Of a stretch of 64,000 nt of DNA, positions 6,903 to 42,319 are shown in pieces. Below the pieces are notes generated by a model. It was given only the letters and a program-made list of their open reading frames with translations. It searched no databases and was not told where the DNA came from. The translations under genes and the position numbers were made by a program. Positions within the stretch are counted from its first letter, which is position 1. Each line of letters opens with the position of its first letter. This DNA comes from a virus (taxonomy: Duplodnaviria; Heunggongvirae; Uroviricota; Caudoviricetes), in the IMG/VR virus record IMGVR_UViG_3300029305_005988, positions 59,096-123,095 of that record; one strand, written 5' to 3'.

Positions 6903-6929
6903 GTGAGGGGCGCAAGCCCCTCTACATAT

Positions 6930-7374: not shown

Positions 7375-7412
7375 AACCCCTTGACAAAAGCCACGAAATG
7401 TGGTATAATATA
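7375..7412 (+). promoter_or_regulatory. early promoter
   Basis: ccccttgacaaaagccacgaaatgtggtataat. Confidence 0.55.
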
Positions 7413-7474
7413 AGTGTAGTAAGGGAGAGCCACTCCCCACTAACAAAAAATAAAAATAAAGAGAGGTAGAAAAA

Positions 7475-7903
7475 ATGGCAGAAAAGAAGATTACCAAGAG
7501 AGAGAAGAATGAACTCCTTATCGCCGTACTTAACGGCAGAGTTCCCACCGAGGACGAGAAGAATATGCTTATCGAGCATATCACCCACGAGAACGAACTC
7601 CTTGCTCGTAAGGGTAGCAAGTCCGCAACCGCAACCCCTGCACAGAAGGACGCGCTTGCCGTCAGCGAGATTATCAAGGATATTCTTGCCGAGGTCGAGG
7701 GTAAGGGTTTGACCGTAGGCGCAATCCTTAAGGACGAGCGCATCAAGTCCTATGTGCGCCACAATGGAGAGGGTGTGTCCTCGCAGATGGTCACCTCTAT
7801 CTTCTCCAAGAACCCCAAGGATTTCGTGCGTACCGTCGAGAAGAAGGTCGCATACTACGCCCTCGCTTATGGTGAGGTCGTAGACGAGGGTGAGGGGGAT
7901 TAA
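7475..7903 (+). CDS. small-protein paralog family member
   Basis: see 6492-6902. Confidence 0.55.
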   Translation: MAEKKITKREKNELLIAVLNGRVPTEDEKNMLIEHITHENELLARKGSKSATATPAQKDALAVSEIIKDILAEVEGKGLTVGAILKDERIKSYVRHNGEGVSSQMVTSIFSKNPKDFVRTVEKKVAYYALAYGEVVDEGEGD

Positions 7904-7944
7904 CCCCCCTCTCCCCACGGAGAAAAATTTTTTCAAAAAGTTTT

Positions 7945-7985
7945 ACCAAACCTCTTGACAAATAGCCAAAGGTATGGTATAATAT
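7945..7985 (+). promoter_or_regulatory. early promoter
   Basis: cctcttgacaaatagccaaaggtatggtataat. Confidence 0.55.
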
Positions 7986-8019
7986 ATATGTCAAGAGGAT
8001 AGAAAGAGAGGTAAACAGT

Positions 8020-8445
8020 ATGGCAAGTATGTATACCCCCTACACCTTAAAAGGTGGCAAGGTGGTCAATGTGCCGAATAAGGCGGTCGCCAATCTGCAA
8101 GCACAGTTGAAACTGTCAAGAGCCGAAGCGGTTGAGTTGTGGCTTTATGACGAGGGATATATCGAGTGTCCCGAAGCAGACGAGTTGACCGCCAAGGCAA
8201 AAGAGAATAAAGTATCTCATGGGGCGCGCGCCGAGAATAAGCAGAAAACGCAGAGAGAGCGCGTGGTGAAAGAGGACAAGGTCAAGGAAGCAATTATCCA
8301 AGCGGTAGCCGATATGCTCCCCAACCTCAATGCCGAGAATGTGATTATTGAGAAAAAGGGAAAACTTATCACCTTTACCGTGGGTGAGGATAAATTCAAG
8401 TTTGACCTTATCCGTCAGCGACCGCCCAAGGAAAGCAAGGGGTGA
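8020..8445 (+). CDS. hypothetical protein (141 aa, charged)
   Basis: ORF with RBS agagaggtaaacagtatg. Confidence 0.5.
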   Translation: MASMYTPYTLKGGKVVNVPNKAVANLQAQLKLSRAEAVELWLYDEGYIECPEADELTAKAKENKVSHGARAENKQKTQRERVVKEDKVKEAIIQAVADMLPNLNAENVIIEKKGKLITFTVGEDKFKFDLIRQRPPKESKG

Positions 8446-8485
8446 AAACCCCTTGCTACATAAAACGAAAGCGAGGAAGAAGAAA

Positions 8486-8695
8486 ATGGCTAAAACTATG
8501 GAATTTACTTGTCCCGAATGTGGCGAAGATATTTTCATTGACGAGGTTGATGCAACGGTTGAGGATATGGTTGCCTATATCAAAATGACTTGTTGCAGTT
8601 GTGGAGCAGAATGGACTGATACCTTTCGCTTGACCTATAACGGATACGCTATGGGCAGTGAAGTTTGGGATAAGAATGGAGAGAAAATCGTATGA
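8486..8695 (+). CDS. zinc-ribbon protein (69 aa)
   Basis: CPECG...CCSCG; RBS gaggaagaagaaaatg. Confidence 0.5.
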   Translation: MAKTMEFTCPECGEDIFIDEVDATVEDMVAYIKMTCCSCGAEWTDTFRLTYNGYAMGSEVWDKNGEKIV

Positions 8696-8928
8696 CGGCA
8701 TATGAAGAATTGAAAGCGTGGTGCGAGAAACACCTTGGAGATAAATATAGAATAGAGATAATACCTGAAACAACTGAATATTATACAACAATGTATATTC
8801 TCAAGGGTGAGGAAGAGATATTTTACGCCGCCTTTGATGCCGAAGAATATTTCATTGGAATGAGCAGTGCCACTTGGGACGAGTTCCAAGAACATATTGA
8901 ATTGGCAGAAAGAGAGGGAAAAATATAA
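8692..8928 (+). CDS. hypothetical protein (78 aa)
   Basis: ORF, ATGA overlap. Confidence 0.5.
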   Translation: MTAYEELKAWCEKHLGDKYRIEIIPETTEYYTTMYILKGEEEIFYAAFDAEEYFIGMSSATWDEFQEHIELAEREGKI

Positions 8929-8948
8929 GCGCCAAACGCACTAAAAGA

Positions 8949-8976
8949 AAACAGAGGGTAAAGCCCTCTGTTTTTT
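8949..8976 (+). terminator. rho-independent terminator
   Basis: cagagggtaaagccctctg+ttttttat. Confidence 0.65.
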
Positions 8977-8989
8977 ATCTGCACCAATC

Positions 8990-9210
8990 GCGTTCACATC
9001 TTGTTCACAATTCGACGGGTCGCTAGCCATCGGCTAGCCCCGACTTCCACATTCCACTACCATTCCATATATACGCGATCGAAAAATGGTTGTTTCAATT
9101 TCACTCTCATTTTCCCGCAAACCTAGACCCTTGCTCTATACCGGGCGCCTGAACTAGCGCGGGCCGCGGACAATCGCGAAAGCCCGTCTAAGGCCTAGAC
9201 TAGCACCTTC
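8990..9210. repeat. GC-rich palindrome/iteron-like non-coding block (gctagccatcggctagc, cgcgggccgcg, cctagac x2)
   Basis: local GC well above the flanks; palindromes seen directly. Confidence 0.4.
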
Positions 9211-17020: not shown

Positions 17021-17329
17021 ATGGCACGCGGAGCTGAAGCAAAAGCAAAAATCCAGAAACAAATTCTTGAGGCTTTCCCTGGAAGCTTCACATACAATGA
17101 CGGTAAAGAAATTCGTATTCCCACTCCCGAGGGCGCTGAAGTGGTTCAGATTAAGGTTGTTCTTACTTGCGCCAAAGAGAATGTGGAAATGGGCGCTGAT
17201 AATGCAATGCCTGGCGACTTCCCTGCACCAAAGATGACTGCGCCGACCCCTGAGCGCACTGAACCTGTGAAGCCTTCAGAAACCGAGAAGCAAGCAGTTG
17301 CAGATCTCTTAAAGTCTTTAGGTCTTTGA
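17021..17329 (+). CDS. hypothetical protein (102 aa; MARGAEAKAKI..., Pro-rich C-half)
   Basis: ORF+RBS. Confidence 0.5.
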   Translation: MARGAEAKAKIQKQILEAFPGSFTYNDGKEIRIPTPEGAEVVQIKVVLTCAKENVEMGADNAMPGDFPAPKMTAPTPERTEPVKPSETEKQAVADLLKSLGL

Positions 17330-17355
17330 TTTCAAAAACAGAAAGGAGAGATATT

Positions 17356-17655
17356 ATGGTAAGACCCGCAAAATTACTGAAATATGTTGAATGGCAAGAT
17401 GCAGGTGGAAATTGGTTGTGTAATGACACCTCTGATCTATGCAGTCCACGCGCCTTATGGTGGGTGCCGGCGCGAATGCTTAATATCTCTCCCGAAGAGT
17501 ATGTTCAGCTATTGATTGAGCAATTTCATCCAGATCGTATTCAATATTTCCAAGATACCGATGTTCTTGTTTACTCTTGGAAGAATATTAACGACATGAG
17601 AAAGTATAAGAACTGGTTAAACGCACAAGCAAGAAAATATCAATATATCATTTAA
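17356..17655 (+). CDS. hypothetical protein (99 aa)
   Basis: RBS gaaaggagagatattatg. Confidence 0.5.
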   Translation: MVRPAKLLKYVEWQDAGGNWLCNDTSDLCSPRALWWVPARMLNISPEEYVQLLIEQFHPDRIQYFQDTDVLVYSWKNINDMRKYKNWLNAQARKYQYII

Positions 17656-17733
17656 TAATAGTAATCTTAATTGATTTTATTAAAAAAATTTGATATAATA
17701 TATATGTAATAATGAGAAAGGAAGAAAAAACAA

Positions 17734-18850: not shown

Positions 18851-18925
18851 GCGGGATTAACTCAGCGGAAGAGTAATCGCCTTCTAAGCGATAAGCCAAA
18901 GGTTCGAATCCTTTATCCCGTGCCA
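18851..18925 (+). tRNA. tRNA-Arg(TCT)
   Basis: cloverleaf by eye: stem atcgc/gcgat, loop cttctaa; T-loop ggttcgaatcc; CCA encoded. Confidence 0.6.
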
Positions 18926-19024
18926 GCATCCCAGAACTAGCCTTAATATATTATGCGACTTGCGATAATAAAGTCTGACATAATATATGCTGTCAGAGGC
19001 GGCAGCGGTTCTGGGGTAACATCT

Positions 19025-19100
19025 GCGCCCCTAGCTCAGACGGAAGAGCGGCTGACTCTTAATCAGTAGGTCCAGGGTTCGAATCCCTGGGGGCGCACCA
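19025..19100 (+). tRNA. tRNA-Lys(CTT)
   Basis: loop ctcttaa; T-arm caggg/ttcgaat/ccctg; CCA. Confidence 0.6.
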
Positions 19101-19411
19101 GAGGGAGACCTCAAGGGAATGATTCCGATGCCCGCTTAGCAGCGAAAAAAGGCGTGTTACCGTACTCGATAACAAACGGGGTTTTGCAATGGGTATTTGC
19201 TCCTTATAAACAACCCATAGGGAAGTCGTGGTCCCTAAAGGCTAGCTGGCTAACCACAACTCAAGAAAGTTCCACGCTTGGCTTGGCGGCAAAAGGTGGC
19301 GGTATGTATGGTTACCGAAAAAGTATCATATAGGGCGATAGAGGGACTGAAGCCTCTATAGTGGAGTTCAAGCCTCACTGTACAAGGTTTAGCCAACCAG
19401 CTTGAATTTAT

Positions 19412-19485
19412 ACTGGATTAGTTTAGCGGAAGAACGGGGCGCTACGGACGCTCAGACAAGGGTTCAACTCCTTTATCCAGTGCCA
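19412..19485 (+). tRNA. tRNA-Arg(ACG)
   Basis: loop ctacgga; acceptor actggat/atccagt; CCA. Confidence 0.6.
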
Positions 19486-19558
19486 TACACAACCGACGGA
19501 CAAGGCTTTGGCGCATGAAACAAGGCGGTGGGATGCGAGTGGTTAGGTTGTGTAATTT

Positions 19559-19635
19559 GGGCCACTAGCTCAGTTGGTCAGAGCATCCGGCTCATAACCG
19601 GACGGTCCAAGGTTCAAGTCCTTGGTGGCCCACCA
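19559..19635 (+). tRNA. tRNA-Met(CAT) elongator-type (or Ile-lysidine)
   Basis: loop ctcataa; G1-C72; CCA. Confidence 0.6.
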
Positions 19636-19666
19636 ATACATATAAAAATCAAAAGGAGAGAAGATA

Positions 19667-19816
19667 ATGAAGCCACTTGAAATTAAAGAGTCTAAAGAGC
19701 GAAGAAAAGAGCGGGTCCGTAACTCGGCTTCTCTCCGCACAAGAGTCGTTGAAAGTAAGAAGAAATATAATCGCAAGCGTCAAAAGGCGCGCGACCGTCG
19801 CTCTATGGAGGATTGA
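19667..19816 (+). CDS. very basic 49-aa protein (bS21-like?)
   Basis: MKPLEIKESKERRKERVRNSASLRTRVVESKKKYNRKRQKARDRR; RBS aaaaggagagaagataatg. Confidence 0.35.
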   Translation: MKPLEIKESKERRKERVRNSASLRTRVVESKKKYNRKRQKARDRRSMED

Positions 19817-19817
19817 A

Positions 19818-20096
19818 ATGACTTATTATCACGGCACTTCTGATATATTTGAAATGGGTACTTATATACTACCCGCCTCTTGCACTCATGTTTTACGAGA
19901 AGATTGGCGTAAAAAAGATTTAGATATAGTATTTTCTACTATCTCTTATAAATCAGCTTATATGTATGCCAAGAAGGCAGTTGAAAAGTATGGAGGTGCG
20001 CCAGTGGTATATCGCATTATTCCTCTTGGTAATGTACATTATCGTGGCGGTATAGAATACGGTTCTAATATTGCAGTTATAGTTGCTAAAGAGTAA
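19818..20096 (+). CDS. Arr-like mono-ADP-ribosyltransferase mini-protein (92 aa)
   Basis: MTYYHGTSDIFEMGTY... and VVYRIIPLG resemble Arr YHGT / YIVEPTG motifs (from memory). Confidence 0.35.
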   Translation: MTYYHGTSDIFEMGTYILPASCTHVLREDWRKKDLDIVFSTISYKSAYMYAKKAVEKYGGAPVVYRIIPLGNVHYRGGIEYGSNIAVIVAKE

Positions 20097-20171
20097 AAAT
20101 TTTTTCATTTTTAATTAAATCATTAAAAGTAATTTTAATATAAAAATACCCCACTCAGAAAGGAGAAGCTT

Positions 20172-20417
20172 ATGGGATACAAAAGAAGTCAAGAACAAAG
20201 AAGGCGAGATGAGCGCACCTATTCTGAAACTAAAACTTGGTATGGTAAAGGGGTATGGTATGATAAAGAAAAAGGCATTTATCGTAGATATTCATTACCT
20301 GAGCGTACGCGTTTTGTAAAGCGTAAATGTAACCGCGCAGTTCGTCGATATAAAGGAGATTTAACTACTAAAGGAGCGTATCGTAAAGTTTCTGAGTATT
20401 GGTGGGAAATCTGGTAA
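20172..20417 (+). CDS. basic Arg/Lys-rich protein (81 aa)
   Basis: ORF+RBS aaaggagaagcttatg. Confidence 0.4.
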   Translation: MGYKRSQEQRRRDERTYSETKTWYGKGVWYDKEKGIYRRYSLPERTRFVKRKCNRAVRRYKGDLTTKGAYRKVSEYWWEIW

Positions 20418-20425
20418 TTCATATA

Positions 20426-20498
20426 GGGAATTAGTTTAACAGTAGAATGACTGTCTCCAAAACAGTAGGCTGCGGGGCAGCACCGTAATTCCCTGCCA
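20426..20498 (+). ncRNA. degenerate tRNA-like (Trp CCA-type anticodon arm, no canonical T-arm)
   Basis: acceptor gggaatt/aattccc 7/7, stem actgt/acagt, loop ctccaaa; T-region replaced by ctgcggggcag. Confidence 0.3.
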
Positions 20499-20603
20499 GT
20501 TCCTTTAAAGATCTTCATAGTGACCATCGGCGCATTTATTGATTTTATAAAAAAATTATGATATAATAAATTGTAAAATGAAAGAGGGAAAGAGAGGGAA
20601 AAA

Positions 20604-20822
20604 ATGAAAGCACAAATTCGACTTGATACCATGTCTGATGTACATCGCTTTGTTAATATTGCAACAAAGCAAAAGGGTAGTGTCTATATCACTGATGACA
20701 ATGGTTTAAAGGTTAGCGCCAAATCATTGCTCGGTGCGCTTTATGCTCTTGAGTTTGATGAACTCTGGTGTGAAGCAGAAAATGATATTTATACTGCTAT
20801 TGCTGATTTCGTTATTCTTTAA
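20604..20822 (+). CDS. HPr-like phosphocarrier domain protein (72 aa)
   Basis: DVHRF (His15-like) and NGLKVSAKSLLGALYALEF vs HPr GLHTRPA / NGKSASAKSLFKLQTLG. Confidence 0.55.
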   Translation: MKAQIRLDTMSDVHRFVNIATKQKGSVYITDDNGLKVSAKSLLGALYALEFDELWCEAENDIYTAIADFVIL

Positions 20823-20889
20823 TTGACTTTTCTAAAAAATTATGTTATAATAAAGTACAAAATAAAACAAACCGCAAAGGAGAAAAGTT

Positions 20890-21024
20890 ATGCAAGCTGT
20901 ATGGTATCTTGATGATGAAAATATGAAGCACGTGACTGTCGTGCGTGATCCTGCTGAGTTAATCTTTCTTAAAGAGCGATTTGATTTTGTCGGTACTCTT
21001 GAAGATTTTATGGTAAAAGCATAA
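20890..21024 (+). CDS. hypothetical small protein (44 aa)
   Basis: promoter + RBS aaaggagaaaagttatg. Confidence 0.3.
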   Translation: MQAVWYLDDENMKHVTVVRDPAELIFLKERFDFVGTLEDFMVKA

Positions 21025-21412
21025 AAACTTCATTGATTTTTAATAAAAATTATGATATAATATATGTGTAAGATAAAGGAAACGGGAGTTGTCAGTCCCC
21101 ATAAGCGCCTTTCTTTCGCGCAACTGACTTGGATATGCGGCTGATGGTTCATGAGCCTAAAGCTGTACTTCCTCAGTGAGAGGCGTTTTTTGAGAGTTTT
21201 AGCCGAGATTAAAATTCTACCTTGAGAGTTTTGGAGAAACTCTTCGTTTCAGACAAAAGAGGTATCAATCACTTAGAGTCTTTGTTCGTATAAGTTAAAA
21301 AACATGATAGATTGGTCGCGGCGAGAGTGGCGAGCCTTATGCGGTGTAACGAGCAGAAGCGCAAGAAGATCTTCGCGCCTTGGGAGGGCGGTTATAATAC
21401 TCCCTTTATGGG

Positions 21413-21486
21413 ACCTTAGCTCAGATGGTAGAGCACTTCTTTGATGGCGAAGGTGGCAACGGTTCGAGTCCGTTAAGTTCCTCATA
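21413..21486 (+). tRNA. tRNA-Ile(GAT)-like with imperfect stems (possible pseudo-tRNA)
   Basis: T-arm aacgg/ttcgagt/ccgtt; loop ttgatgg with 31:39 mismatch; acceptor 6/7. Confidence 0.3.
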
Positions 21487-21698
21487 TGTGTAGGTTCACG
21501 ATAACCCTTAATTAGTGAAAATCGTTTAAATGAAGTCGCGCCCGTTGATGGAGTGGCGGACGCGGTTATTAATGAGTATGATGACGCAGACGATTTACCC
21601 TTGGTAGTTGCGTGGAAGGTTGATAAAAGGGCGGTTAGGGAGTAATCCGAGTGAAAACACCACGCTACTTGATGGGCGTTGAATGCATCAAGGTCGAC

Positions 21699-21774
21699 GG
21701 GGGTATAGTTTAAATGGTCAGAACGGGAGCCCTTCAAGCTTCAGATGTGGGTCCGATTCCCGCTATCCCTACCA
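21699..21774 (+). tRNA. tRNA-Glu(TTC)
   Basis: loop ccttcaa; T-arm gtggg/tccgatt/cccgc; CCA. Confidence 0.5.
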
Positions 21775-21861
21775 TAGCGCTTAGGTAAGGCGCTATATAA
21801 ATCTTCTACATTGTCCGTGAGTGACGGGGGTTGGTTTGTCAGCAATATAATCATTTATTAT

Positions 21862-21936
21862 GGAGCTTTAGTTAAGTGGTCAAAACGGGGCGTTCTCAGC
21901 GCTCAGGCGAGGGTTCAATTCCCCCAAGCTTCACCA
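21862..21936 (+). tRNA. tRNA-Glu(CTC)
   Basis: loop ttctcag; acceptor ggagctt/aagcttc; CCA. Confidence 0.5.
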
Positions 21937-22745
21937 TGTTAATGCCGCCCATCAACTAATAAGAGCGCCGATGGGGAAGAGTTAATCTTTTAAGGTTGCG
22001 CCACTCCTGTCCGAGTGGGAGTATAAATAAAAATCTGGCGCACAGTGCCAACTTGGCTGTGCTTAATGGGAAGTTGGGATAAGGTTTCGAGGGTACCGTA
22101 AACCCTCACTTACATAAACTTGTCGACATTCTGCAAAATGTTCGAGTACAAGGGTAGCGTAAATTCCGTCGAGATTTGTTGCAGCATTGCAAAACGGGTC
22201 GGCGCCCAAGGGTAAGTAGCAAGTTGTCTTACCCCATATGATATGGCGGATGGGCATAGTGTTCACCAGAGCCTCATAAGCTCAGGTTGCTCGGGGCAGT
22301 ACCGAGATCCGCATCCACTATACCTAAAATAAAAAAGAGGTTCCTTGGGGAAGAAGCAGGGACCCAGTATCTCCACCTCGAGAATCTGATAAGGGCAGGC
22401 ATCTCAGTTGCGAGACTGAGCGGTAGATAATTACCGTCTTGAGCAGAAAAAATTATACTCTGTTATTGGAGAAAATTGCAATAACTATGCACCTGAATTG
22501 GAATGCCCCATTACAGCTCATGGGTGACTTGGTAGCGCGGAGGCGATGACGCAAAGTCTTCGAAAGAACAAGGGAAAGCTCAACCCAATGCGCCATATGC
22601 CAGAAGGGTCGGCGCCCATCGACGCCTCATACGCGTTGAGCGCTTGGATCGACACCAAGTTTTGGCACCATAAATCCGAGAGGGGCGGCGATGGAAGTTC
22701 TGTCGGCTCGGCTTGTCTGCGCGCACAGGCGCCCCCATTATATAC

Positions 22746-22833
22746 GCAGATCTGGCGAAGAGGTAAACGCACTCGTTATAGGGACGGGTTATATACTCCA
22801 TTATCGTGGGTTCGAATCCCACGATCTGCTCCA
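22746..22833 (+). tRNA. class II tRNA, anticodon TAG (Leu), A33 in loop tataggg
   Basis: acceptor gcagatc/gatctgc, stem ctcgt/acggg, 17-nt variable arm, T-arm gtggg/ttcgaat/cccac, CCA. Confidence 0.45.
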
Positions 22834-22897
22834 CCTCCGAGAGCAAATGTGGGAGGTTAAATGGATATGCAGTTGACTGACTTAAAGTCGCTTTTAT

Positions 22898-22983
22898 CGG
22901 CGGGTGAGCGGAATTGGTAACGCAGCGGACTGTAACTCCGTGGCTCTAGGGCATTGTTGGTTCAAGTCCAACCTCGCCGACCA
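22898..22983 (+). tRNA. tRNA-Tyr(GTA), class II
   Basis: loop ctgtaac; 14-nt variable; T-arm gttgg/ttcaagt/ccaac; CCA. Confidence 0.55.
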
Positions 22984-23075
22984 TTTATCAATCACTATGA
23001 AACTTCTTTGATTTTTACAAAAAATTATGATATAATAAATATGTAAAATGAAAGAGAGGAAAAAAAGAAAAATAT

Positions 23076-23201
23076 GGAGTGGTAGCCCAACAGGCAGAGG
23101 CAATGGACTTGTCTGATGTTCGGTAACCTAGACTGGGTCAGCACCAGTATCAGGCACCAAAAATCCATCAAGTGAGGGTTCGAATCCCTCTCACTCTACC
23201 A
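23076..23201 (+). ncRNA. 126-nt tRNA-like gene with 55-nt insertion in anticodon loop
   Basis: acceptor ggagtgg/tcactct, D-arm gccc..ggc, anticodon stem atgga/tccat enclosing 55 nt, T-arm gaggg/ttcgaat/ccctc, CCA; own upstream promoter. Confidence 0.4.
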
Positions 23202-23356
23202 ATTACATATTAAGGTACGGGAATAAAGCGGCCCCGCTAAGTAAGAGCAGCTTAGAGCGAATGCCTTGATGAAAAGAATATTCTTTATATTAGGTGCCTA
23301 CTCGGGGAATACAGGTGGTAGGATAAATGTGACGACCCAGCCAGCCTAATATTTAT

Positions 23357-23449
23357 AGTGGGGTAAGCCTAATTGGTAAGGCAGTAGGTTGCTAACCTAC
23401 TAGTAATCGAGTAATCGGTGTGTGAGTTCAAGTCTCACCCTCGCTGCCA
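23357..23449 (+). tRNA. tRNA-Ser(GCT), class II
   Basis: stem gtagg/cctac loop ttgctaa; long variable arm; acceptor agtgggg/cctcgct; G73; CCA. Confidence 0.55.
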
Positions 23450-23621
23450 GCTGTCGTTGATACGGCGACATAAAAGGTGAAACTCCCTTTAGGCAGAAGC
23501 GTATTGGTGGACTATCCACAATCGGAGGTAGCGTTCGTGCACAGCGAATAGTGCAATCGTAGCGGTCTTTAAAGGCGCCATATGGGACTGCGTCTGGTAC
23601 GAAAACCCAGACCTTTGAAAT

Positions 23622-23713
23622 GGGAGATTAACCCTAAAGGCAAGGGACTAGTCCTGAAAACTAGTAGTAGCGAGTCAAATCGTGTGTGGTTTCGAGATCC
23701 ACATCTCCCTCCA
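23622..23713 (+). tRNA. tRNA-Ser(TGA), class II
   Basis: acceptor gggagat/atctccc; stem ctagt/actag loop cctgaaa; long variable arm; CCA. Confidence 0.5.
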
Positions 23714-23864
23714 CTTACCCGTGAGTAGTGGGGCTCTCGGCATCGCCAGTAAATAGCTACTCAAACTCCCAACGGTAGAGCAAATGACCAGAACTAGGAG
23801 TTAAAATAAACGAGACTAAGGATGTGCGGCTGACAACCTACTGTCATTACATATGCGAGTTTAG

Positions 23865-23939
23865 TTCAGAAGTAGAATACCGCTCTGATAAAGCGGGGGT
23901 GCTTGGGGCAGTACCAAGAATTCGCACCAAAACTCAAGA
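23865..23939 (+). tRNA. tRNA-Ile(GAT) with non-canonical T-loop ggcagta
   Basis: stem ccgct/agcgg loop ctgataa; acceptor gcgagtt/aattcgc; CCA. Confidence 0.55.
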
Positions 23940-24324
23940 GATAAAAGGAAGATGTAGGTTCGAGCCCTGCCCGCGCCGTCTTTAATTTGCGCGGTAGTGT
24001 GAAGTGGTTTAACACATCCGAAGCGCACCTTTTGAGTTTGTTGTAAGGAGTCATGACCTTACCGTGACATTGGTTAGCTACCGTCGATTAGCCATGAGCG
24101 CGAAAATGCTCTAAAAAAGTAGCAAACGGTAACTCATTACCGTGAATATTTGATAACCTTTAGGAACTGTAGGTTTAACTCAGTGCTAAAGACGAAGCGC
24201 AGTGCACGGCGCAAATGAGAGGATTGTCAGTTGTCTTATCTAACTACCTAAACTGAATAGTCAAGGGATACGAAGATCCCTCCCCGTAGCTGTTCGCGGG
24301 AGTGAGATTGTGAGCAGCATCTAT

Positions 24325-24402
24325 GGGGGACTAGCTCCAATTGGCTAGAGCACGACACCTGCAATGTCGGGGTTATGGGTTCGAATCCCATGTCCTCCAC
24401 CA
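24325..24402 (+). tRNA. tRNA-Ala(TGC)
   Basis: G3:U70 present; loop cctgcaa; T-arm atggg/ttcgaat/cccat; CCA. Confidence 0.65.
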
Positions 24403-24500
24403 GCTGGCTCAAGATAGATAGGCGTAATTAACCTATTGACAAGAACAGCTCCTTCTTCTTGAGTCTAAAATTTTGAGGAGCTATAAAGGAGTTTATAAAA

Positions 24501-25265
24501 ATGACATCAGGAATTTATATGTATTAGAACAAGGTTAATGGACAGTGCTATATTGGATAGGCAATAGACCTTGCACGGAGAAAAAAAGACCATAAAACAA
24601 GAGCCTTTAATGAATTTGAGGGTAATAATGAGTATAATTCAGTAATACATTAGGCTTTTAGAAAATATGGTTATGATAATTTTGAATATTCAGTATTAGA
24701 AGAATGTGAAATATCTTTGCTTAATGAAAGAGAACGATATTGGATTGCTTATTATAATTCTTATAAAGTTGGATATAATTGTGATGAAGGTGGCAATACT
24801 GCAAGACATTTTTGTAAATTTAATGCAGATATATTATAGGCATTAAAAAATGATTTACAAGAAACAAAAGATACCTATGAAATATTAGCAGCTCGATATG
24901 GAGTGTCCATTGGATATGTAAGCGATATTAATAATGGAAAAATATGGCATCAAGATGGTGTAATTTATCCATTACGGAAAAAGCAGTCTAAAAGTATTCA
25001 ATATTGTTCTTTATGTGGAGTTGAGATTTCTGGAGAAGGACAGACGGGCTTATGTGTTGCCTGTGCAAATGCAAGATATAGAAAAGTAGAACGTCCAACT
25101 CGAGAAGAACTAAAATATCTTATTAGAAATTTTACTTTTGTAGAAATTGGTAAGCAATTTGGAGTTGCAGATAACACTATTAAAAAATGGTGTAAAGCAA
25201 TGAATTTACCTTCTCGTAAAAAAGATATTAATTTATATTCAAACATAGAGTGGGAAGCTCTTTAA
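24501..25265 (+). CDS. GIY-YIG homing endonuclease with C-terminal HTH/Zn module; 4 in-frame TAG (24525, 24558, 24651, 24837)
   Basis: MTSGIYMY*NKVNGQCYIG*AIDLARR...; paralog 45405 has Q where this has TAG (FHQAIRKYG vs IH*AFRKYG); ORF 24903-25265 is its tail. Confidence 0.7.
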
Positions 25266-25280
25266 CTTTCCACCAAGATA

Positions 25281-25358
25281 TGGAGTCGTTAGTTCAGTAG
25301 GTTAGAACGCCAGATTGTGAGTCTGGATGTCGTCAGTTCGAGTCTGACACCTCTCCCC
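25281..25358 (+). tRNA. tRNA-His(GTG) (extra 5' G; 2 acceptor mismatches)
   Basis: stem ccaga/tctgg loop ttgtgag; T-arm gtcag/ttcgagt/ctgac; CCA. Confidence 0.45.
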
Positions 25359-25529
25359 ATAAAAACTGAGTCCATCTGATGCGGCACCAGCGCTCAGGAA
25401 AGTAGGATGGATAAAAAGCATTAGCCCAGACATCTGCGGGAAAGCGCTCCTGACAAGTACCGACCGAAAGCGAAATGCGGGATAAGTGAACAGCACCTTA
25501 TCATTTACATAATAACAAAGGAGCAATAT

Positions 25530-25703
25530 ATGAAAAAATCAATCGGTCTTGAATGCCCTCATTGTGGTTATCAGTGGACAACTAAATATTGGATTTGGAT
25601 TTTGAAGGCGCCGATGCACTGGTTTAAATTTCGTGATTGGCGTGATTACAGATATACTAAGTGCCCGAGCTGTGGAAAACGAGGCTGGGTTAAATATTCT
25701 TAA
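25530..25703 (+). CDS. zinc-ribbon small protein (57 aa)
   Basis: CPHCG...CPSCG; RBS aaaggagcaatatatg. Confidence 0.4.
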   Translation: MKKSIGLECPHCGYQWTTKYWIWILKAPMHWFKFRDWRDYRYTKCPSCGKRGWVKYS

Positions 25704-25705
25704 TT

Positions 25706-25770
25706 GATTTTTAATAAAAATTTTGTTATAATATATATACAAAATGAGAAATGAAAAAAGAAAACATTTG
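25706..25770 (+). promoter_or_regulatory. AT-rich-class promoter driving tRNA-Asp leader
   Basis: ttgatttttaataaaaattttgttataat. Confidence 0.5.
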
Positions 25771-25895
25771 GTGACTGGATTTAGCGGTAAGACCTGTTCA
25801 GATAAACGCGTATCAACAGGCGCAAGTTAATCAGTCTTAAATCAGGAAACTTTCCTTTGGGCGCGAATTGCCCATCTGAGCCAGTCCTTTGCTAC

Positions 25896-25970
25896 GGCGG
25901 TATAGTTCAGCGGTGGAGCGCCTGACTGTCTATCAGGATGTCGAGGGTTCGAATCCCTCTACCGTCGCCA
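25896..25970 (+). tRNA. tRNA-Asp(GTC)
   Basis: stem cctga/tcagg loop ctgtcta; T-arm gaggg/ttcgaat/ccctc; CCA. Confidence 0.6.
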
Positions 25971-26199
25971 AAGTCTAATTTGTTAGTTATCCGAGACTTT
26001 AAACCTAAACTGACAAAAGGCGATTATCAACGCCGCACGCGAGCCTTTGAAAGATAAGTAGTGAAAAGCTGGAGTACTACAGTCTGATACGAATCGTATG
26101 TCATCGTGAGCCAACGGCATACTGCGGGACCTTGCCCGTATAAAACCAAGGAGGGTCAGAAGTGGAGTGAGCTACCGAGTATAAACGCTCACGATTTAT

Positions 26200-26275
26200 G
26201 CTGTGATAATTCAATTGGGAGAAGAGCCGGCGTCAAGCAGGCTAGTTGTGGGTTCGAGTCCCACTCACAGGTCCA
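26200..26275 (+). tRNA. tRNA with UCA-centred anticodon loop (cgTCAag, G33) - opal-reading/Sec-like candidate or mis-parse
   Basis: acceptor 6/7 (G1-G72 mismatch); T-arm gtggg/ttcgagt/cccac; CCA; anticodon stem gccgg/caggc with one mismatch. Confidence 0.3.
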
Positions 26276-27009
26276 GAGGTGCCAATGCCTAATCATTGGT
26301 CAGGAGTCTAACCTGTGCGGTATTACGCAGAGCGACCGGGGTCCCGCATCCGTGAGCAACGGGAAAAATAATAGGTGCCACGAAGCCAATAACTAGGGAG
26401 TGAATATTACTTGATGTAATTAGCCCATTCGATAAAATCCTAGGTACGAATGAGATACAGCTCTGTGAGGCGATAAAATGCAGTGGTAAATGGAGTTTGA
26501 TGAACAGCCTATTCCACCCCGCTCTAAGGGTGAGTACTCGAGGTCTGGAGCAACGAGTAAATAAATAAATAAAGTCCCCAGAGTCGTTTTGCGGTGTCGG
26601 AGAAAACCGCCATAGAGCGCAAGTGTTGTGGGTCGAGCGGGCTTAGAGCAATGGCCCAATTAGGTAAGGACAAGGTTCATGGAAATGCGCGGAAGTGACA
26701 AAAACCCTCAGTTTTCCTTGTTTTCACAAAACAAGGTGGGCTCAAGTTGGGCATCTACTGTGACCTCTGGGAGGAGTCCCCTTCGATCCTCCACCTATTC
26801 AACAGAGTGAGTAGAGAGCGAAGTCGCAAACGCTATATAAAAAGACGAGTAATAGTGTTGAGTCTTAAGACACAGGCAGCGGTGGGCCAAATATCCGCTG
26901 GAGTTTCGCCTCCAAGATGAAGTGCGAGATTTATGATGTAAGTCGTGATTAGCTCTGAAGTGGACGCTTATTTAAGCAGCTTCGGTCTACGGCGCGGGTC
27001 CAGCTTTCC

Positions 27010-27085
27010 GCATCCAAGAGCTGGAATTTCGGGGTGTAGCCTAGTTGGTTAGGCGCTTGCTTTGGGAGCAAGATCACGCGGGTTC
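27010..27085 (+). tRNA. tRNA-Pro(TGG)
   Basis: stem cttgc/gcaag loop tttggga; D-stem gcct/aggc; CCA. Confidence 0.6.
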
Positions 27086-27260
27086 GAGTCCTGTCACTCC
27101 GTCCAATATTTACACCCTAAAGATTCTTAGGGCAACAATCGGCGCCAATCCATCTCCCAGCAGTTGGATAATACGCGCAAGAACTTTATGGAGTTCGGAG
27201 AGTCTTTCTCTTGCTGGGTATAAAAACTCTCCTCCTCTTTTTCCATTAAGAGATACATAT

Positions 27261-27347
27261 GCGTTTGTGGTGTAATTGGCAGCCACGCAGCGTTGAGGTC
27301 GCTGTGCTCGAAAGAGCGTGTAGGTTCGACTCCTATCAGACGCACCA
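27261..27347 (+). tRNA. tRNA-Leu(GAG), class II
   Basis: stem cagcg/cgctg loop ttgaggt; variable arm gctcgaaagagc; A73; CCA. Confidence 0.6.
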
Positions 27348-27389
27348 TTGTTTGCAGCGTAGCAAAGAAAAACCTGCTGCAGAGAGCTA

Positions 27390-27440
27390 TCATCTAACCA
27401 CCATTAGATGATAGTAGCCTCCAAGTTTTTAATTGATTTT
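27390..27440 (+). terminator. long hairpin terminator (gctatcatctaa..ttagatgatagc + gttttt)
   Basis: seen. Confidence 0.55.
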
Positions 27441-27582
27441 ATTAAAAATTTATGATATAATAATATTGTAATAATGAGAAAGGAAATAAAAATAAAAAGA
27501 AATGAGAAATGTAAAGCGAAAATTTAGAGCCTTGGAGAATTAATCCATCTAAGGTATTTAAAACATAGATGGGTTTTAATAT

Positions 27583-27656
27583 GAGCCCGTCATATAATGG
27601 TAGTATTTGCGACTTTTAATCGCACCGTCGGAGTTCGACTCTCCGCGGGCTCACCA
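27583..27656 (+). tRNA. tRNA-Lys(TTT)
   Basis: acceptor gagcccg/cgggctc; loop cttttaa; T-arm cggag/ttcgact/ctccg; CCA; own promoter. Confidence 0.65.
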
Positions 27657-27812
27657 TAAAGAATTTAATTGATTTCTTAAAAAATTTATGATATAATAAA
27701 TATGTAAGATAAAGGCGATGCAATATAAGTAGCGAGAAACAAAGACACTCGCCGCTTCCATCAACAAATTCTCGATTCAAAATTGCTCGAAAGAGGTCGC
27801 TAATCGTAATAT

Positions 27813-27888
27813 TGGGTCTTCGCCTAAACGGTTAGGGCACAGGACTTTGACTCCTGCAGTCTAGGTTCGAATCCTAGAGACCCAGCCA
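27813..27888 (+). tRNA. tRNA-Gln(TTG)
   Basis: U1:A72, G73, tc-gcc D-arm (Gln-like); stem cagga/tcctg loop ctttgac; CCA. Confidence 0.6.
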
Positions 27889-27923
27889 AATATTGGAGGT
27901 TAGCCTAGTGGTCAGGCAGTCGG

Positions 27924-28392
27924 CTGTTTTAACTGACTTTAATCTTTAATGAAAAAAGATAGTGAACAGTAAGCAAATTGGCAATATTACCGAAGTATCT
28001 GTTATGCTTGAGTTTTTAAAATTAGGATATAATATTTTAACTCCTTATGGAGATTGCGAACGATATGATTTTGTTGCAGATATTAATCATAAATTTTATA
28101 AAATTCAAGTAAAAACAGCAAAAAAAGATAATGGTAAAATCGAATTTAATACAGCATCCACTCATTATGTAGATGGAAAATGTATTCATGACTCTTATAC
28201 AAAAGATGAAATTGATTACATTGCAACTTATTTTAATAATAAGTGTTATTTAATTCCAATTGAGGAATGTGGAAAGCGCTCTGCTTCAATTCGTTTTGAA
28301 GCTCCTAAAAATGGACAAACCAGAGGAGTTCGAATGGCAGAAGATTATGAGTTGGAGGAAGTAATTAAAAGATTAAACTGATGTTAAAGCAA
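27924..28392 (+). mobile_element. intervening element in tRNA anticodon loop (group I intron-like or novel) encoding PD-(D/E)XK-like nuclease
   Basis: only ~40 nt 5' and ~11 nt 3' of non-ORF sequence, too little for a canonical group I core. Confidence 0.4.
27962..28381 (+). CDS. putative PD-(D/E)XK-fold homing endonuclease (139 aa), paralog of 30291-30905
   Basis: GDCERYDFVADIN...KIQVK motif block conserved with paralog (GEDCRYDMIVDIN...RVQVK); lies inside split tRNA. Confidence 0.45.
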   Translation: MNSKQIGNITEVSVMLEFLKLGYNILTPYGDCERYDFVADINHKFYKIQVKTAKKDNGKIEFNTASTHYVDGKCIHDSYTKDEIDYIATYFNNKCYLIPIEECGKRSASIRFEAPKNGQTRGVRMAEDYELEEVIKRLN

Positions 28393-28653
28393 CCGACCTA
28401 CGGGAGTTCAATCCTCTCACTTCCAGCCAGTCGATTATCGACAAAAACCGTTATCATGAATTTGGCAGTTAAACTACCACCGACTCTAACAATTAGCACC
28501 CAGTATGCGGTCAAGTATTGAATATGAGGTATGTGGCTTAGTGGGAAACGGTATATCAAAGACGCAAAGTAAACTGCCGCTTGGATGATTTTTTCATGGT
28601 TTTCCTCCCTTCAACGGGTTTGGGCATTACCGTTAAAACAATGCCTTTAGAAT

Positions 28654-28730
28654 GTCAGTCTAGCCCAATTGGCAGAGGCACTAGTCTTAGGAACTAGTTA
28701 GTGTGGGTTCGACTCCCTCGATTGACACCA
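28654..28730 (+). tRNA. class I (short variable arm) tRNA with anticodon TAG (Leu codon CUA) - atypical
   Basis: stem ctagt/actag loop cttagga; acceptor gtcagtc/gattgac; T-arm ~gtggg/ttcgact/ccctc; CCA. Confidence 0.45.
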
Positions 28731-29419
28731 TGGATGCTACTTCCAAGCCGTAAGGTGAATGTAGCGGTTTTTACGATGAGGTTTTGACGGTTTTTCCAAG
28801 AGTCGTAATCCCCATAATATAATTATTAAAATAAATCGGCAACTCTTGGGTGTTGATGTACAAGTAGCACCATCAACCTCTCCTATGCGTTCCGTATATA
28901 AAGACTCGGAAGAGGTAACAGAGCGTAGGTGACTATACGGTATCAAGAGGCGGAATCCGTACGCGCGACGAGGCATGATGCGAAAAATCAAAAAGGTGGC
29001 AGCCTGCTCGAGAATATATGGTATTATAAATTTAATCGGTATCAATGTGGAAAGACACTGCCAAAGGTTGACAACCATTATGAGTTGTTGAAACAGAGAT
29101 ACTCGATATAAGTAAATAATCTTGATTACATTAAGTAGTTTGAGGCGATTACTACTGTGAAATGCAGAGTAGGCTTGAGAGAGCGCTCACGAACAAGAAT
29201 TGAAATCAAATGCTGAGAAGATCGTGGATTTCGTCCATCCGAAGCACAGAGTAGGATGCGATTAGCGACGAGGATGTGGTGAGGTTCTGGTAGACCAACC
29301 AATGGTGTCTAAGTCAGATGTAGATTGAAAGATGTAACGGTTATTTACTCGAATTGTGGAAGGTAGCAAATACCCGATGCCCAAAAGAAGAAGATATGCG
29401 GTTAGCTGACCTAAAGCTT

Positions 29420-29460
29420 CACCTCTTTATTGACAAAATAAAAAATTTTTGTTATAATAA
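29420..29460 (+). promoter_or_regulatory. promoter of GIY-YIG HEG (ttgacaaaataaaaaatttttgttataat)
   Basis: seen. Confidence 0.5.
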
Positions 29461-29539
29461 ATAAGTAATCGAAAGTTCATTGATAATTGCATAAGAAAAT
29501 ATATAAGACATCTATAAAAGAAGGAGTTGAATTTATTAT

Positions 29540-30176
29540 GGGTTTTATTTATAAAGTTACAAATAAAGTCAATGGTAAAGTTTATATTGGAAAAACTTTA
29601 GACTCTTCTATAGAGGAGCGCTTTAAAGAACATATTAAAGAAGCTAAAGTAAAACAATATAATCGACCTTTTCATCTGGCTTTAAATAAGTATGGAGCAG
29701 AAAATTTCATAATTGAAGAAATTGAGCAAATTCCTGCAAATGAATTAAGCAAAAGAGAAATATATTGGATTTCTTTTTATCATTCTTATATTCACGATCC
29801 AGTTTCAAACGGATATAATGCCACTAAAGGTGGCGAAGGATCGCTAGAATATGACTATGATAAAGTTATTGTAGAGTATCATAAAACACAAAGTATTACT
29901 CAAACAGCCAATAATTTAAAATGTTCTATATCTACAGTACAGAGAGCTATTCGAGAATATAATGTTCCCGTATATAAACAGCGCGCCTGTGGAGTTAAAA
30001 TTATTGGCTATAATGATATGGAAGAATTAACTTTTGATTCTATCCGACAAGCTGCTGAATTTTTATCAAAACGATTAAATAAAGATATGCAGACAATACG
30101 AAAGCGAATTACTTCTATTATTAATCATAAACCTAATCAAAAAGGGTATGGTTATTACTGGAAAGAACAAGAATAA
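29540..30176 (+). CDS. GIY-YIG homing endonuclease (no in-frame TAG)
   Basis: MGFIYKVTNKVNGKVYIGKT...ERFKEH...YWISFYHS...GYNATKGG; ORF track 29487-30176. Confidence 0.7.
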
Positions 30177-30228
30177 CTATATTTTCTTATGCAATTAAGT
30201 TGAACTTTTTAATATGCACCTGTCGCAT

Positions 30229-30919
30229 AGTGGCCGATTGCACTCGCCTTGTTCGTAAATTTAAGACTTCCTATAAAGGAGGTTGATATAATGAATGAGA
30301 CAAAGATTAAAGGTTTAACCACTGAGCTTCAATGTCAATTATTCTTTACTCAATTGGGTTATAATGTTAGTATCCCGTTAGGAGAAGATTGTAGATATGA
30401 TATGATAGTAGATATTAATGGCATACTCTTGCGAGTTCAAGTAAAACACGCAACTGTTGCAGAAAATGGTATTACTATTTCTACTCGTTCTACTCAATCT
30501 AACACTTCAGGATCAAAAAGTTTAACCTATAATAAGGAACAAATTGATTATTTTGCAACTTTTTATAATAACCAGTGTTATTTAATTAAAGTTGAAGAAT
30601 GTTCAACTCAAAAAACTTTAGCTTTTACTAAAATTCAACAAATGCAGAACTTCATTGATGATTTTTTGGCTGAAAAAGAAATTCAAAGAATCTTAAATGG
30701 GGAAGATGCTATAGAAGATACTGTAATAGCAAATGTATATCAATATGATTTGCGTGGCAACTTAATAGGAGCCTATTCAAGTGCCGTTGCAGCAGCTGAA
30801 AGTTTAGGAGATCGCTCTAAAAATTCTCATATTACCAAATGCCTTAATGGGCATAGGCAAACAGCATATGGGTATAAATGGAGCAGGACACTATTGAAGT
30901 CTTAAACATTATGATCAAA
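30229..30919 (+). mobile_element. intervening element in tRNA anticodon loop encoding nuclease ORF
   Basis: no G at predicted 3' splice position, so a group I assignment is doubtful. Confidence 0.35.
30291..30905 (+). CDS. putative PD-(D/E)XK-fold homing endonuclease with C-terminal DNA-binding tail (GYKW), paralog of 27962-28381
   Basis: conserved block with paralog; RBS ataaaggaggttgatataatg. Confidence 0.45.
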   Translation: MNETKIKGLTTELQCQLFFTQLGYNVSIPLGEDCRYDMIVDINGILLRVQVKHATVAENGITISTRSTQSNTSGSKSLTYNKEQIDYFATFYNNQCYLIKVEECSTQKTLAFTKIQQMQNFIDDFLAEKEIQRILNGEDAIEDTVIANVYQYDLRGNLIGAYSSAVAAAESLGDRSKNSHITKCLNGHRQTAYGYKWSRTLLKS

Positions 30920-31505
30920 GCGAGAGACCTTGTCCGCGTTGGTTCGAATCCAACTAGGTGCTCCATGGCGTCAAGAAGAAAACCTGCGCGTGGTGACGCT
31001 GCACGCTCTTACCCAGTGGCTAATTTCTTCATGCATCACCTCCTTTCGATGCAAAAAGGCGGCGCACGCCTGTAAGTCCCCAAGCTATCTTGGCTAAAGT
31101 GTTGCGGGGAGCATACCCTGACAAACCTCTGTGGCTGGGTTATAAGCTCGGAAAATAGACACTTCTCCATTTAGTGAGAAACCGTTAGTGTCACTAAGCG
31201 AGGGTGGCGGGAAAAACCTTCGCTTCTTCCCATTTAAACTTGATATACGACAGGTGAAGTCGATAAAACTGCCTTGGTAGGGTAGCGCCCTACGGAAGAG
31301 ACGATAGAGCGCAAGAGGGCGTCCCAAGATTATCAAGTACAATTTATATTAGCTTAAGAGAGCCTTTGTCCCAAACACAGCGCTCCGTCAAAAGAAACCG
31401 TTTAGCACGGACTCGCAAGAGATAGTACTCGGTAGGGTTGGGAAAAGCGTGGATACAATTAGCTACTCCACGGGAAATTTCAATTGACAATCTTAAGCGC
31501 CTTCT

Positions 31506-31580
31506 GCAGGTGTCGTATAATGGCTATTACCTCTGCCTTCCAAGCAGATGATGGGAGTTCGATTCTCCCTACTTGCTCCA
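31506..31580 (+). tRNA. tRNA-Gly(TCC)
   Basis: stem tctgc/gcaga loop cttccaa; T-arm gggag/ttcgatt/ctccc; CCA. Confidence 0.6.
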
Positions 31581-31657
31581 GCCCTTTGGGCGACATTTTT
31601 CTACCCTTCCTTTCTGCTTTACCGCGCGCTGTTCGTTGGCGCGCGGTAATTGAACAT
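31581..31657 (+). promoter_or_regulatory. perfect 10-bp hairpin taccgcgcgc..gcgcgcggta between tRNAs (processing site?)
   Basis: seen. Confidence 0.35.
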
Positions 31658-31734
31658 GGTGATGTACCCGAGTGGACTAAGGGCGCGCTCTGCAAAAGCG
31701 TTGTGCGTTGATTCGAATTCAACCATCACCTCCA
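31658..31734 (+). tRNA. tRNA-Cys(GCA)
   Basis: acceptor ggtgatg/catcacc; stem gcgct/agcgt loop ctgcaaa; CCA. Confidence 0.6.
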
Positions 31735-31736
31735 TA

Positions 31737-31765
31737 TAGTCACTCTTAAGAGTGGCTTTTTTCTT
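31737..31765 (+). terminator. rho-independent terminator ending tRNA array
   Basis: cactcttaagagtg+gcttttttc. Confidence 0.65.
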
Positions 31766-31888
31766 TTTATTCTGTGCGGAGCGCCAAGGCTCGTATTTTG
31801 AAATAAAAAGGTGGTTTTAGATATTTTGTATTGAAATTTTCAAAATTATATGTTATAATTTATTAAAGAATAATAAGAGGTAATTGAT

Positions 31889-42220: not shown

Positions 42221-42319
42221 TGGGGGGTCGCTTAATGGTCATAGCAGCGGTCTCTAAAACCGCCAGAGCCTACGGGTCTGCTCCGTAGTATGTGGGTTCG
42301 AGTCCCACCCCCCCAGCCA
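42221..42319 (+). tRNA. amber-suppressor tRNA(CUA), Gln-type identity, with 28-nt extra (variable) arm
   Basis: stem gcggt/accgc loop ctCTAaa; U1:A72, G73, tc-gct D-arm as in tRNA-Gln; variable arm ctacgg-gtctgct-ccgtag hairpin; T-arm gtggg/ttcgagt/cccac; CCA. Confidence 0.6.

Follow-up and report, generated by a model that had tools for sequence, protein, structure and literature searches.

The tRNA array and the gap within it

The 64,000-nt stretch of viral DNA analysed here, referred to throughout as the window, comes from an uncultured gut phage of ~130 kb. Its gene content includes topoisomerase II, an NAD-dependent ligase, a DnaB-like helicase, a primase, an RNA ligase, a sigma factor and a vault-shoulder-domain protein. 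A blastn search for cultured relatives in 50,697 phage records returned the tRNA-Pro gene as the only match; the nearest relatives are IMG/VR contigs of 100–135 kb and ENA gut-type assemblies, and the best hint as to the host is that a Eubacteriales MAG contains one related contig. Positions 1–9000 looked ORF-poor under a 150-aa cutoff, a reading that we rejected, as this stretch is densely filled with small genes on the + strand.

The features of the tRNA array, and of the operon within it that concerns us here, are as follows.

18851–31734, + strand: tRNA array, ~25 (24–25) tRNA genes by ARAGORN and Rfam
20535–31873 (for example 25700–25749, 27429–27478 and 27665–27714): repeated promoter, TTGAYTT, 17-nt spacer, TGNTATAAT
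25704–25732, + strand: sigma-70-type promoter with extended −10, TTGATT-17-TGtTATAAT, matching at 10/12 positions with the TG present; one copy of the repeated promoter, at the head of the operon
25896–25970, + strand: tRNA-Asp(GTC), first gene of the operon, 62.3 bits
26200–26275, + strand: weakly scoring tRNA-like gene whose TCA anticodon would read UGA; ARAGORN 'SeC' (tca), Rfam 33.9 bits against a cutoff of 29
27030–27105, + strand: tRNA-Pro(TGG), 57.7 bits, with the same junction in the relative L001
27261–27347, + strand: tRNA-Leu(GAG), last gene before the promoter at 27433

Three homing endonuclease genes interrupt the array, as do 8–9 copies of one strong extended −10 promoter, and these promoter copies split it into many short operons. 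Syntenic arrays of relatives were found by means of two anchors, a 254-aa gene upstream and a vault-like gene downstream of the array. The latter, at 32561–35050, lies directly downstream and encodes an 829-aa protein with major-vault-protein shoulder and repeat domains; this protein has more than 6000 metagenome homologues at E ≤ 1e-50 and marks a large phage clade.

The subject of this analysis is a gap of 754 nt, 26276–27029, that lies exactly between the CCA of the tRNA-like gene and tRNA-Pro. A preliminary description of the window had drawn attention to 26280–27009 as one of several ORF-free, GC-rich and structured spacers; the region is real, with true bounds of 26276 and 27029. At 48.1% GC it is indeed richer than the window (39.2%), although 'far more GC-rich' was an overstatement. 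Only 4% of 730-nt windows are equally GC-rich; GC contents of the other intervals listed with it are 41–50%. The statement that 26280–27009 contains no credible ORF is borne out, the longest stop-free run being 117 codons (on the minus strand) compared with 92 ± 22 in shuffled sequences. Likewise, ARAGORN finds no tRNA inside this interval, as had been claimed. In one of the other spacers, 21937–22745, there is an ARAGORN tRNA-Met-like call (22599–22670).

The region had also been called dense in local palindromes, which by folding energy is not above chance. Minimum free energy (MFE) z-scores were −0.63 for the whole region, −1.18 for its 3′ domain, +1.09 for its 5′ part and −1.34 for the homologue in L071, and were non-significant on both strands and in every sub-domain tested. 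The evidence for structure in 26276–27029 is covariation, not folding energy.

Conservation and modular organisation

The preliminary description had made its reading depend on conservation among relatives, and the region is conserved. The whole element is 81% identical to its homologue in L001 by BLAST (88% of aligned positions), its first 113 nt are 93–96% identical in L004, L071 and L073, and its 3′ 230–300 nt show 75–83% identity in nine further contigs. Among related contigs all three modules described below have higher nucleotide identity than the flanking 254-aa gene, the one flanking gene compared, for which the protein is only 50–59% identical and the DNA ~67%. It is important to note that the homing endonuclease genes in the array could raise nucleotide identity through gene conversion, independently of function.

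In a full alignment, relatives differ in which blocks they have, in the copy number of the blocks and in their order; the blocks resolve into three modules and a short linker:

26276–26515, + strand: 5′ domain, comprising conserved hairpins and the BD module
26517–26715, + strand: module E, a pseudoknotted RNA of ~190 nt, defined by nhmmer and covariation
26716–26736, + strand: hairpin F, CCUUGUUUU-CAC-AAAACAAGG, the linker between E and G, read from the sequence
26750–27029, + strand: domain G, 280 nt folded into several helices and two pseudoknots, with 11 homologues

Hence what had been described as one long spacer is a non-coding RNA region, as supposed, but one made up of three separable RNA modules. 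The modules are separable units that are also found solitary between tRNAs in other phages, and their order can change, E lying upstream of BD in L076. To judge from the matches described below, two of the three belong to families spread across many large phages. Hairpin F also occurs in L068, L069 and L076. In L061 a different ORF-free stretch of ~410 nt (17288–17700), whose 3′ end consists of a tRNA-like T arm, acceptor strand and CCA, takes the place of the 5′ and middle modules; this may be yet another RNA.

A scan of metagenomes with one sequence pattern gave 0 matches. With a second pattern there were two, which barely fit the profile of the 3′ domain (E = 0.5) and look like chance; we rejected both.

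Covariation in domain G

The structure of G was drawn by hand from 11 sequences, and consists of 40 pairs in 8 helices with two pseudoknots. Its elements, together with Hx, are:

26754–58/26811–15, + strand: H1
26765–69/26803–07, + strand: H2
26770–92, + strand: variable hairpin
26817–20/26831–34, + strand: H5
26855–57/26871–73, + strand: Hx, left outside the pair count, the alignment being out of register there
26878–82/26895–99, + strand: H6
26900–03/26910–13, + strand: H7
26904–09/26924–29, + strand: PK1, pseudoknotted with H7
~26940–26990, + strand: variable stem
26994–98/27007–11, + strand: PK2, interleaved with H10
27000–05/27019–24, + strand: H10

Covariation analysis with related phages, which the preliminary description had proposed, reveals compensatory base-pair changes in both E and G. 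In G, 96.7% of 423 cells form standard pairs, compared with 35–49% when the partners are slid by 1–3 columns. Thirteen pairs change on both sides, a number reached in 0 of 500 shuffles, while the slid controls give at most 3. Thus CCAGCU/AGCUGG is replaced by CCAGCC/GGCUGG or CCAGUC/GACUGG; a pairing between a loop and downstream sequence, UCGC/GCGA, becomes GCUC/GGGC or GCUC/GAGC; and PK2 changes from GCGGG/CCCGC to GCGGU/ACCGU in L076 and to ACGGG/CCCGU in L057. G-U pairs are frequent, and as they would read C-A on the opposite strand, we assign the RNA to the + strand. G was located in just 11 contigs, 4 of which are in IMG/VR; these contigs are close relatives, and the covariation of G is thus drawn from few lineages.

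G is solitary in L061, following a tRNA-like element, and a sub-module of it has been relocated to the 5′ side in L068. A long-range helix of three pairs, GCG/CGC, that RNAalifold proposed was set aside, a local AGCG/CGCU hairpin together with PK2 being the better explanation.

Module E is widespread among phage tRNA arrays

By nhmmer, module E is present in the window, L001, L057, L076 and L046, and in at least 22 further IMG/VR loci. The latter were reached by way of a 17-base conserved word, which retrieved 39 IMG/VR stretches, 38 of them new; 22 of the 38 were confirmed by the profile at E ≤ 1e-8. In an alignment of 18 distinct sequences, 83.9% of cells are paired as against 30–44% with slid partners, and there are 73 double-change cells compared with 22.6 ± 3.8 in shuffles. 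Across eight sequence versions the helix GCAGA/UCUGC stays 100% paired, with 4 of its 5 pairs covarying, and a crossing helix of three pairs is 94% paired, with all three covarying. In total, compensatory double substitutions occur at 15 pairs of E. A long-range pairing of (N)GGGU with ACCC(N) can also be seen by eye to covary, appearing as GGGU/ACCC, AGGU/ACCU, GUGGU/ACCAC and GUGAGGU/ACCUCAC. From the two sets of alignments we conclude that selection acts on base pairing in both E and G.

E has the same orientation as the nearest flanking tRNAs in 23 of 23 loci. It lies 0–12 nt upstream of a tRNA in 14 of the 23, often tRNA-Pro(TGG), and at L046 (1544–1751) it is solitary, flanked by two tRNA-Ser genes. 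E, which matches no Rfam family, is a member of a widespread RNA family that is new relative to Rfam.

Other RNAs share some of these arrays. Three of ten scanned E loci (L080, L083 and L089) also have ROOL, at coordinates that differ from those of E, and five of the ten have a tmRNA match, one of which (L089) is a short match of 55.5 bits. The coordinates of ROOL or phage tmRNA in these E-bearing phages are 1911–2226 and 4478–5073 in L083, 39–667 in L080, 2836–3438 in L089 and 9990–10310 in L094.

The 5′ domain and the BD module

26282–26299, + strand: hairpin CCAATG/CATTGG of the 5′ domain
26343–26363, + strand: hairpin CCCG–13-nt loop–CGGG of the 5′ domain
26371–26388, + strand: 5′ part of BD, AAUAGG-UGCCAC-GAAGCC, followed by a variable insert
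26483–26515, + strand: 3′ part of BD, GUGGUAAAUGG...CAGCCUAUU, which closes BD on itself

BD closes on itself by pairing of AAUAGG with CCUAUU and of UGCCAC with GUGGUA, enclosing the variable insert. The nhmmer profile of the 5′ domain matched 11 distinct contigs. Where it is present the domain is nearly invariant, and the proposed fold is based mainly on this conservation and on one compensatory change, from CCCG/CGGG to TCAG/CTGA in the hairpin of L065. Solitary copies of BD are found in the tRNA arrays of six other large phage contigs of 94–214 kb (L116–L120 and L123), and BD is present in two copies in L073 and L119. In five cases (the window, L001, L004, L071 and L073) the ...CCA that immediately precedes the element belongs to a tRNA or to a degenerate tRNA-like sequence.

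An MFE prediction for L071 contained a long-range 5′/3′ helix, GGGUCCCGC with GCGGGACCC. This helix was rejected, since in L065 the 5′ strand changes within its local hairpin, and since L002, L061 and L076 are without the 5′ strand yet retain the 3′ strand.

Comparison with known RNAs

The Rfam search that had been suggested was run over the array, and 26276–27029 matched no family. There was no match at gathering scores, at E ≤ 1 (array) or at E ≤ 10 (the 754 nt alone). The same tool scores ROOL at 333–351 bits, and finds tmRNA, in other phage arrays, and we therefore regard this negative result as informative. In six more distant relatives Rfam found tRNAs only.

The preliminary description had offered degenerate tRNAs, small stable RNAs, and ribozymes or introns as possible identities. 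Degenerate tRNAs find no favour, as neither ARAGORN nor Rfam gives a tRNA signal inside 26276–27029, even at E ≤ 10, and both flanking genes are detected. The intron models (Intron_gpI, Intron_gpII and group-II-D1D4) likewise have no match at E ≤ 10; moreover, the genes on either side are complete and are not the same in every relative, which argues that the element is not an intron. For the catalogued ribozymes hammerhead, twister, pistol, hatchet and HDV-like there was again no Rfam match at E ≤ 10.

We also considered RNase P RNA, of which the short motifs GGUGCCAC..GAAG, CAACAGAG and GGCCAAAUA are reminiscent. The RNaseP_bact_a and RNaseP_bact_b models do not match the gap at E ≤ 10. Alignment to RNase P sequences is at the level of chance (p = 0.07–0.5 against shuffles), and shared 7–9-mers are expected by chance at such lengths. 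The only AAAGUCC-like motif is in module E, its complementary 3′ strand is absent, and several homologues are without module E. RNase P RNA was accordingly rejected as a candidate.

Three systems from the same genomic niche bear comparison with the element. GOLLD (RF01998) is a structured RNA of ~800 nt and of unknown function; the phages and prophages that carry it often have it in, or next to, a tRNA island. Its 3′ region is conserved and its 5′ region variable, and its linker sometimes holds tRNAs (PMC12286853). ROOL (RF03087), pseudoknotted and ~580 nt long, is likewise found in the tRNA islands of phages; neither a function nor a protein partner is known for it (PMC12286853). Like GOLLD, our element is long (754 nt), lies in a tRNA array, and combines a 3′ domain conserved in 11 contigs with variable 5′ and middle content; unlike GOLLD, it divides into units that are found solitary elsewhere, and it has no match to the covariance model at E ≤ 10. 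In common with ROOL it has pseudoknotted modules in phage tRNA islands, but the window has no match to the ROOL model and no sequence similarity. Profiles of the three modules did not match GOLLD env-38 (E ≤ 10), ROOL env-120 or T4 rnaC and rnaD by nhmmer, and BLAST detected no similarity to GOLLD env-38. The structures of both GOLLD and ROOL have been solved.

The T4 species 1 and 2 RNAs come from transcripts shared with tRNAs and are processed along with them. The order in T4 is tRNAs, the GIY-YIG homing endonuclease gene segB, then rnaD and rnaC, that is, small stable RNAs of unknown function adjoining tRNA genes with a GIY-YIG gene in the cluster, and the same layout is seen here. The differences are that the element is far longer than these RNAs (139 and 119 nt) and has no sequence similarity to them, and that host and phage lineage differ. 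All six of the spacers named in the preliminary description gave only 9–12-nt chance matches to rnaC and rnaD (E ≥ 0.4). By analogy of genomic layout, and in spite of this lack of sequence homology, small stable RNAs like T4 species 1/2 are the closest of the identities originally offered.

We conclude that the RNA families are new relative to Rfam, while RNAs of this kind, large, structured and housed in phage tRNA islands, are already known. A large-scale screen of viral contigs in IMG/VR yielded 10,006 predicted RNAs with covariation; their reported lengths reach 151 bases, with a mean of 67, and they have not been curated into Rfam (PMC10690425). Fragments of E or BD may be among the candidates of that screen.

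A proposed processed RNA, and the alternatives

The promoter at 25704 is followed on its strand by promoters at 27433 and 27669, and we found no terminator either between 25704 and 27433 or inside the element. The upstream neighbour of the element varies. In L001 it is tRNA-Asp(GTC), and in L004, L071 and L073 it is a T-arm-bearing or otherwise degenerate tRNA-like sequence that ARAGORN does not call. An odd T arm, GCGGGGGCAGCACCCGUC, is present in the degenerate tRNA-like elements of L071 and L073.

Our preferred explanation, to which we assign a probability of roughly 75%, is that 26276–27029 encodes a + strand structured non-coding RNA, a head-to-tail fusion of three modules that fold independently (the 5′ domain, E and G), and that this is freed as a stable RNA. 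Transcription from 25704 would yield a precursor carrying tRNA-Asp, the tRNA-like(UCA) sequence, the element, tRNA-Pro and tRNA-Leu. Maturation of the 3′ end of the upstream tRNA-like sequence would cut at 26275/26276; this sequence is a likely 5′ processing signal, given that its 3′ CCA abuts the element. RNase P, cutting at tRNA-Pro (27029/27030), would set the 3′ end. The tRNAs would thus act as punctuation, and the product would be a stable RNA of ~750 nt, or separate modules if further cuts are made. We infer this release from the layout of the operon and from established tRNA processing. The least certain step is the last, in which the released RNA would act in trans during infection, perhaps as a folded scaffold or binder tied to tRNA or translation; in this it would parallel GOLLD, ROOL and the T4 species 1/2 RNAs, all of them found in this genomic niche.

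Alternatively, the modules could be cis-acting parts of the precursor, that is, folding or processing scaffolds or leaders for the maturation, stability or transcription of adjacent tRNAs, which are then degraded. The closeness of E to a downstream tRNA is what one would expect of such parts, particularly as the tRNA-Pro(TGG) that often follows E also follows the element in the window, and PK2 and H10 of G end 5 nt before tRNA-Pro in both the window and L001. However, the tRNA downstream of E may be Pro, Gln, Ile, Ser, Val, Cys or Lys, and in some contigs G lies 118–260 nt from the next detected tRNA and has a different neighbour. Most tRNAs in the same arrays have no such element, and a pseudoknotted, covarying RNA of 200–750 nt far exceeds what known tRNA leaders need. 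We consider a purely cis-acting role unlikely. Far less probable is that conservation is at the level of DNA, arising from recent horizontal spread and gene conversion driven by homing endonucleases, with no RNA function. The array does hold three homing endonuclease genes, one of them splitting a tRNA gene, module content is mosaic between relatives, and blocks of 93–96% identity are shared by otherwise diverged phages. Gene conversion, however, does not yield changes that keep helices intact, such as the double substitutions at 13 pairs of G and 15 of E, or the eight fully complementary versions of one E helix across distant phages, and for this reason we disfavour such an origin.

A similarly small probability, if anything slightly smaller, attaches to the element belonging, in diverged form, to a known class, whether degenerate tRNAs, group I or II introns, RNase P RNA, GOLLD, ROOL or one of the catalogued self-cleaving ribozymes. 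GOLLD does come to mind from the genomic niche and from the layout, a conserved 3′ part with a variable 5′ part, and the short motifs given above are reminiscent of RNase P RNA. Set against this are the empty Rfam result at E ≤ 10, the failure of the module profiles to reach GOLLD env-38, ROOL env-120 or T4 rnaC/rnaD, the chance-level alignment to RNase P sequences, and the intact, varying flanking genes that speak against an intron. Lastly, the presence directly upstream of a tRNA-like gene that would read UGA raises the idea that the region encodes protein under an alternative code. Recoding TGA, TAG or TAA yields no convincing ORF across 26276–27029, however, and the comparison with L001 shows 7 of 10 indels that are not multiples of 3 and mismatches without codon periodicity (29/24/32); whole modules, furthermore, are present, absent or moved among relatives. 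We regard coding as scarcely credible. The freed structured RNA thus remains our preferred reading.

The locus adds to the niche of GOLLD and ROOL at least three new pseudoknotted RNA modules in a single 754-nt gap, with two more large covarying RNAs a few kb away. Modules that are fused, duplicated, moved or solitary amount to a natural dissection of independently folding or acting parts. Having more families in the niche also allows comparative questions to be posed, such as which tRNAs, defence systems and hosts they track with, and this could help in testing what large RNAs are for in phage tRNA islands. We entertain, as a speculation that is probably wrong, that the tRNA array of this phage clade is an 'RNA island' of several unrelated RNA-only devices, with at least five covarying RNAs, namely the three modules and the spacers at 28731–29431 and 30966–31505, in which one or more of E, BD and G represents a new functional class; this could be a ribozyme, a decoy that binds tRNA or ribosomes, or a self-assembling cage like ROOL or GOLLD. 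If true, such devices would help the phage to take over or protect translation.

Other spacers and genes of the array

The preliminary description had grouped 26280–27009 with five other spacers as possible RNAs. All six are mutually unrelated, showing chance matches only. As candidates for conserved non-coding RNA the others are supported, two by covariation and the rest by conservation. The spacer at 30966–31505 aligns across six contigs and has 21 covarying pairs among 114 predicted, while the 3′ 350 nt of that at 28731–29431 has 16 among 92; both are further conserved structured RNAs, and neither belongs to an Rfam family or is related to 26276–27029. Those at 19101–19411, 21937–22745 and 23940–24324 are 75–95% conserved in some relatives. 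The T-arm-like motifs quoted from these spacers exist, with some error of position: gtaggttcgagccctgc is at 23954 rather than 23975, and gtggagttcaagcctcac is at 19361. The pairing ggcagtt/aactgcc is also present, at 28464/28572 and not at 28465/28576.

At 31036–31045, in a stretch predicted to be unpaired in the 30966–31505 RNA, is the sequence UCACCUCCUU, which equals the anti-Shine-Dalgarno sequence at the 3′ end of Firmicute 16S rRNA; conservation extends to 4 of 5 relatives. The 28731–29431 RNA ends in a similar sequence, UCACCUCUUU (29419–29428). Only 0.4 anti-Shine-Dalgarno-like matches are expected by chance in the window.

Of the endonuclease genes, one is a GIY-YIG cassette with its own promoter at 29432–30204, absent from that position in L001, and it lies just upstream of a split gene for tRNA-Thr(UGU) at 30216–30965. 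The split falls right after the anticodon, where a 665-nt insert (30253–30917) consists almost entirely of a ribosome-binding site and a PD-(D/E)XK/NUMOD1 homing endonuclease gene (ATG at 30291, ending at 30905), and so has no room for a ribozyme; nor does it match an Rfam intron. In L001 (18873–18957) and L002 the tRNA-Thr gene is unsplit. There are two possible explanations, namely that the split gene is a dead tRNA gene or that it contains an unusual intron. The third endonuclease gene, of PD-(D/E)XK type, is at 27962–28381.

Far from the array, at 42221–42319, is a tRNA of 99 nt (Rfam 56.3 bits) for which ARAGORN gives an anticodon of four bases (taaa); it could contain an intron or be a frameshift suppressor.
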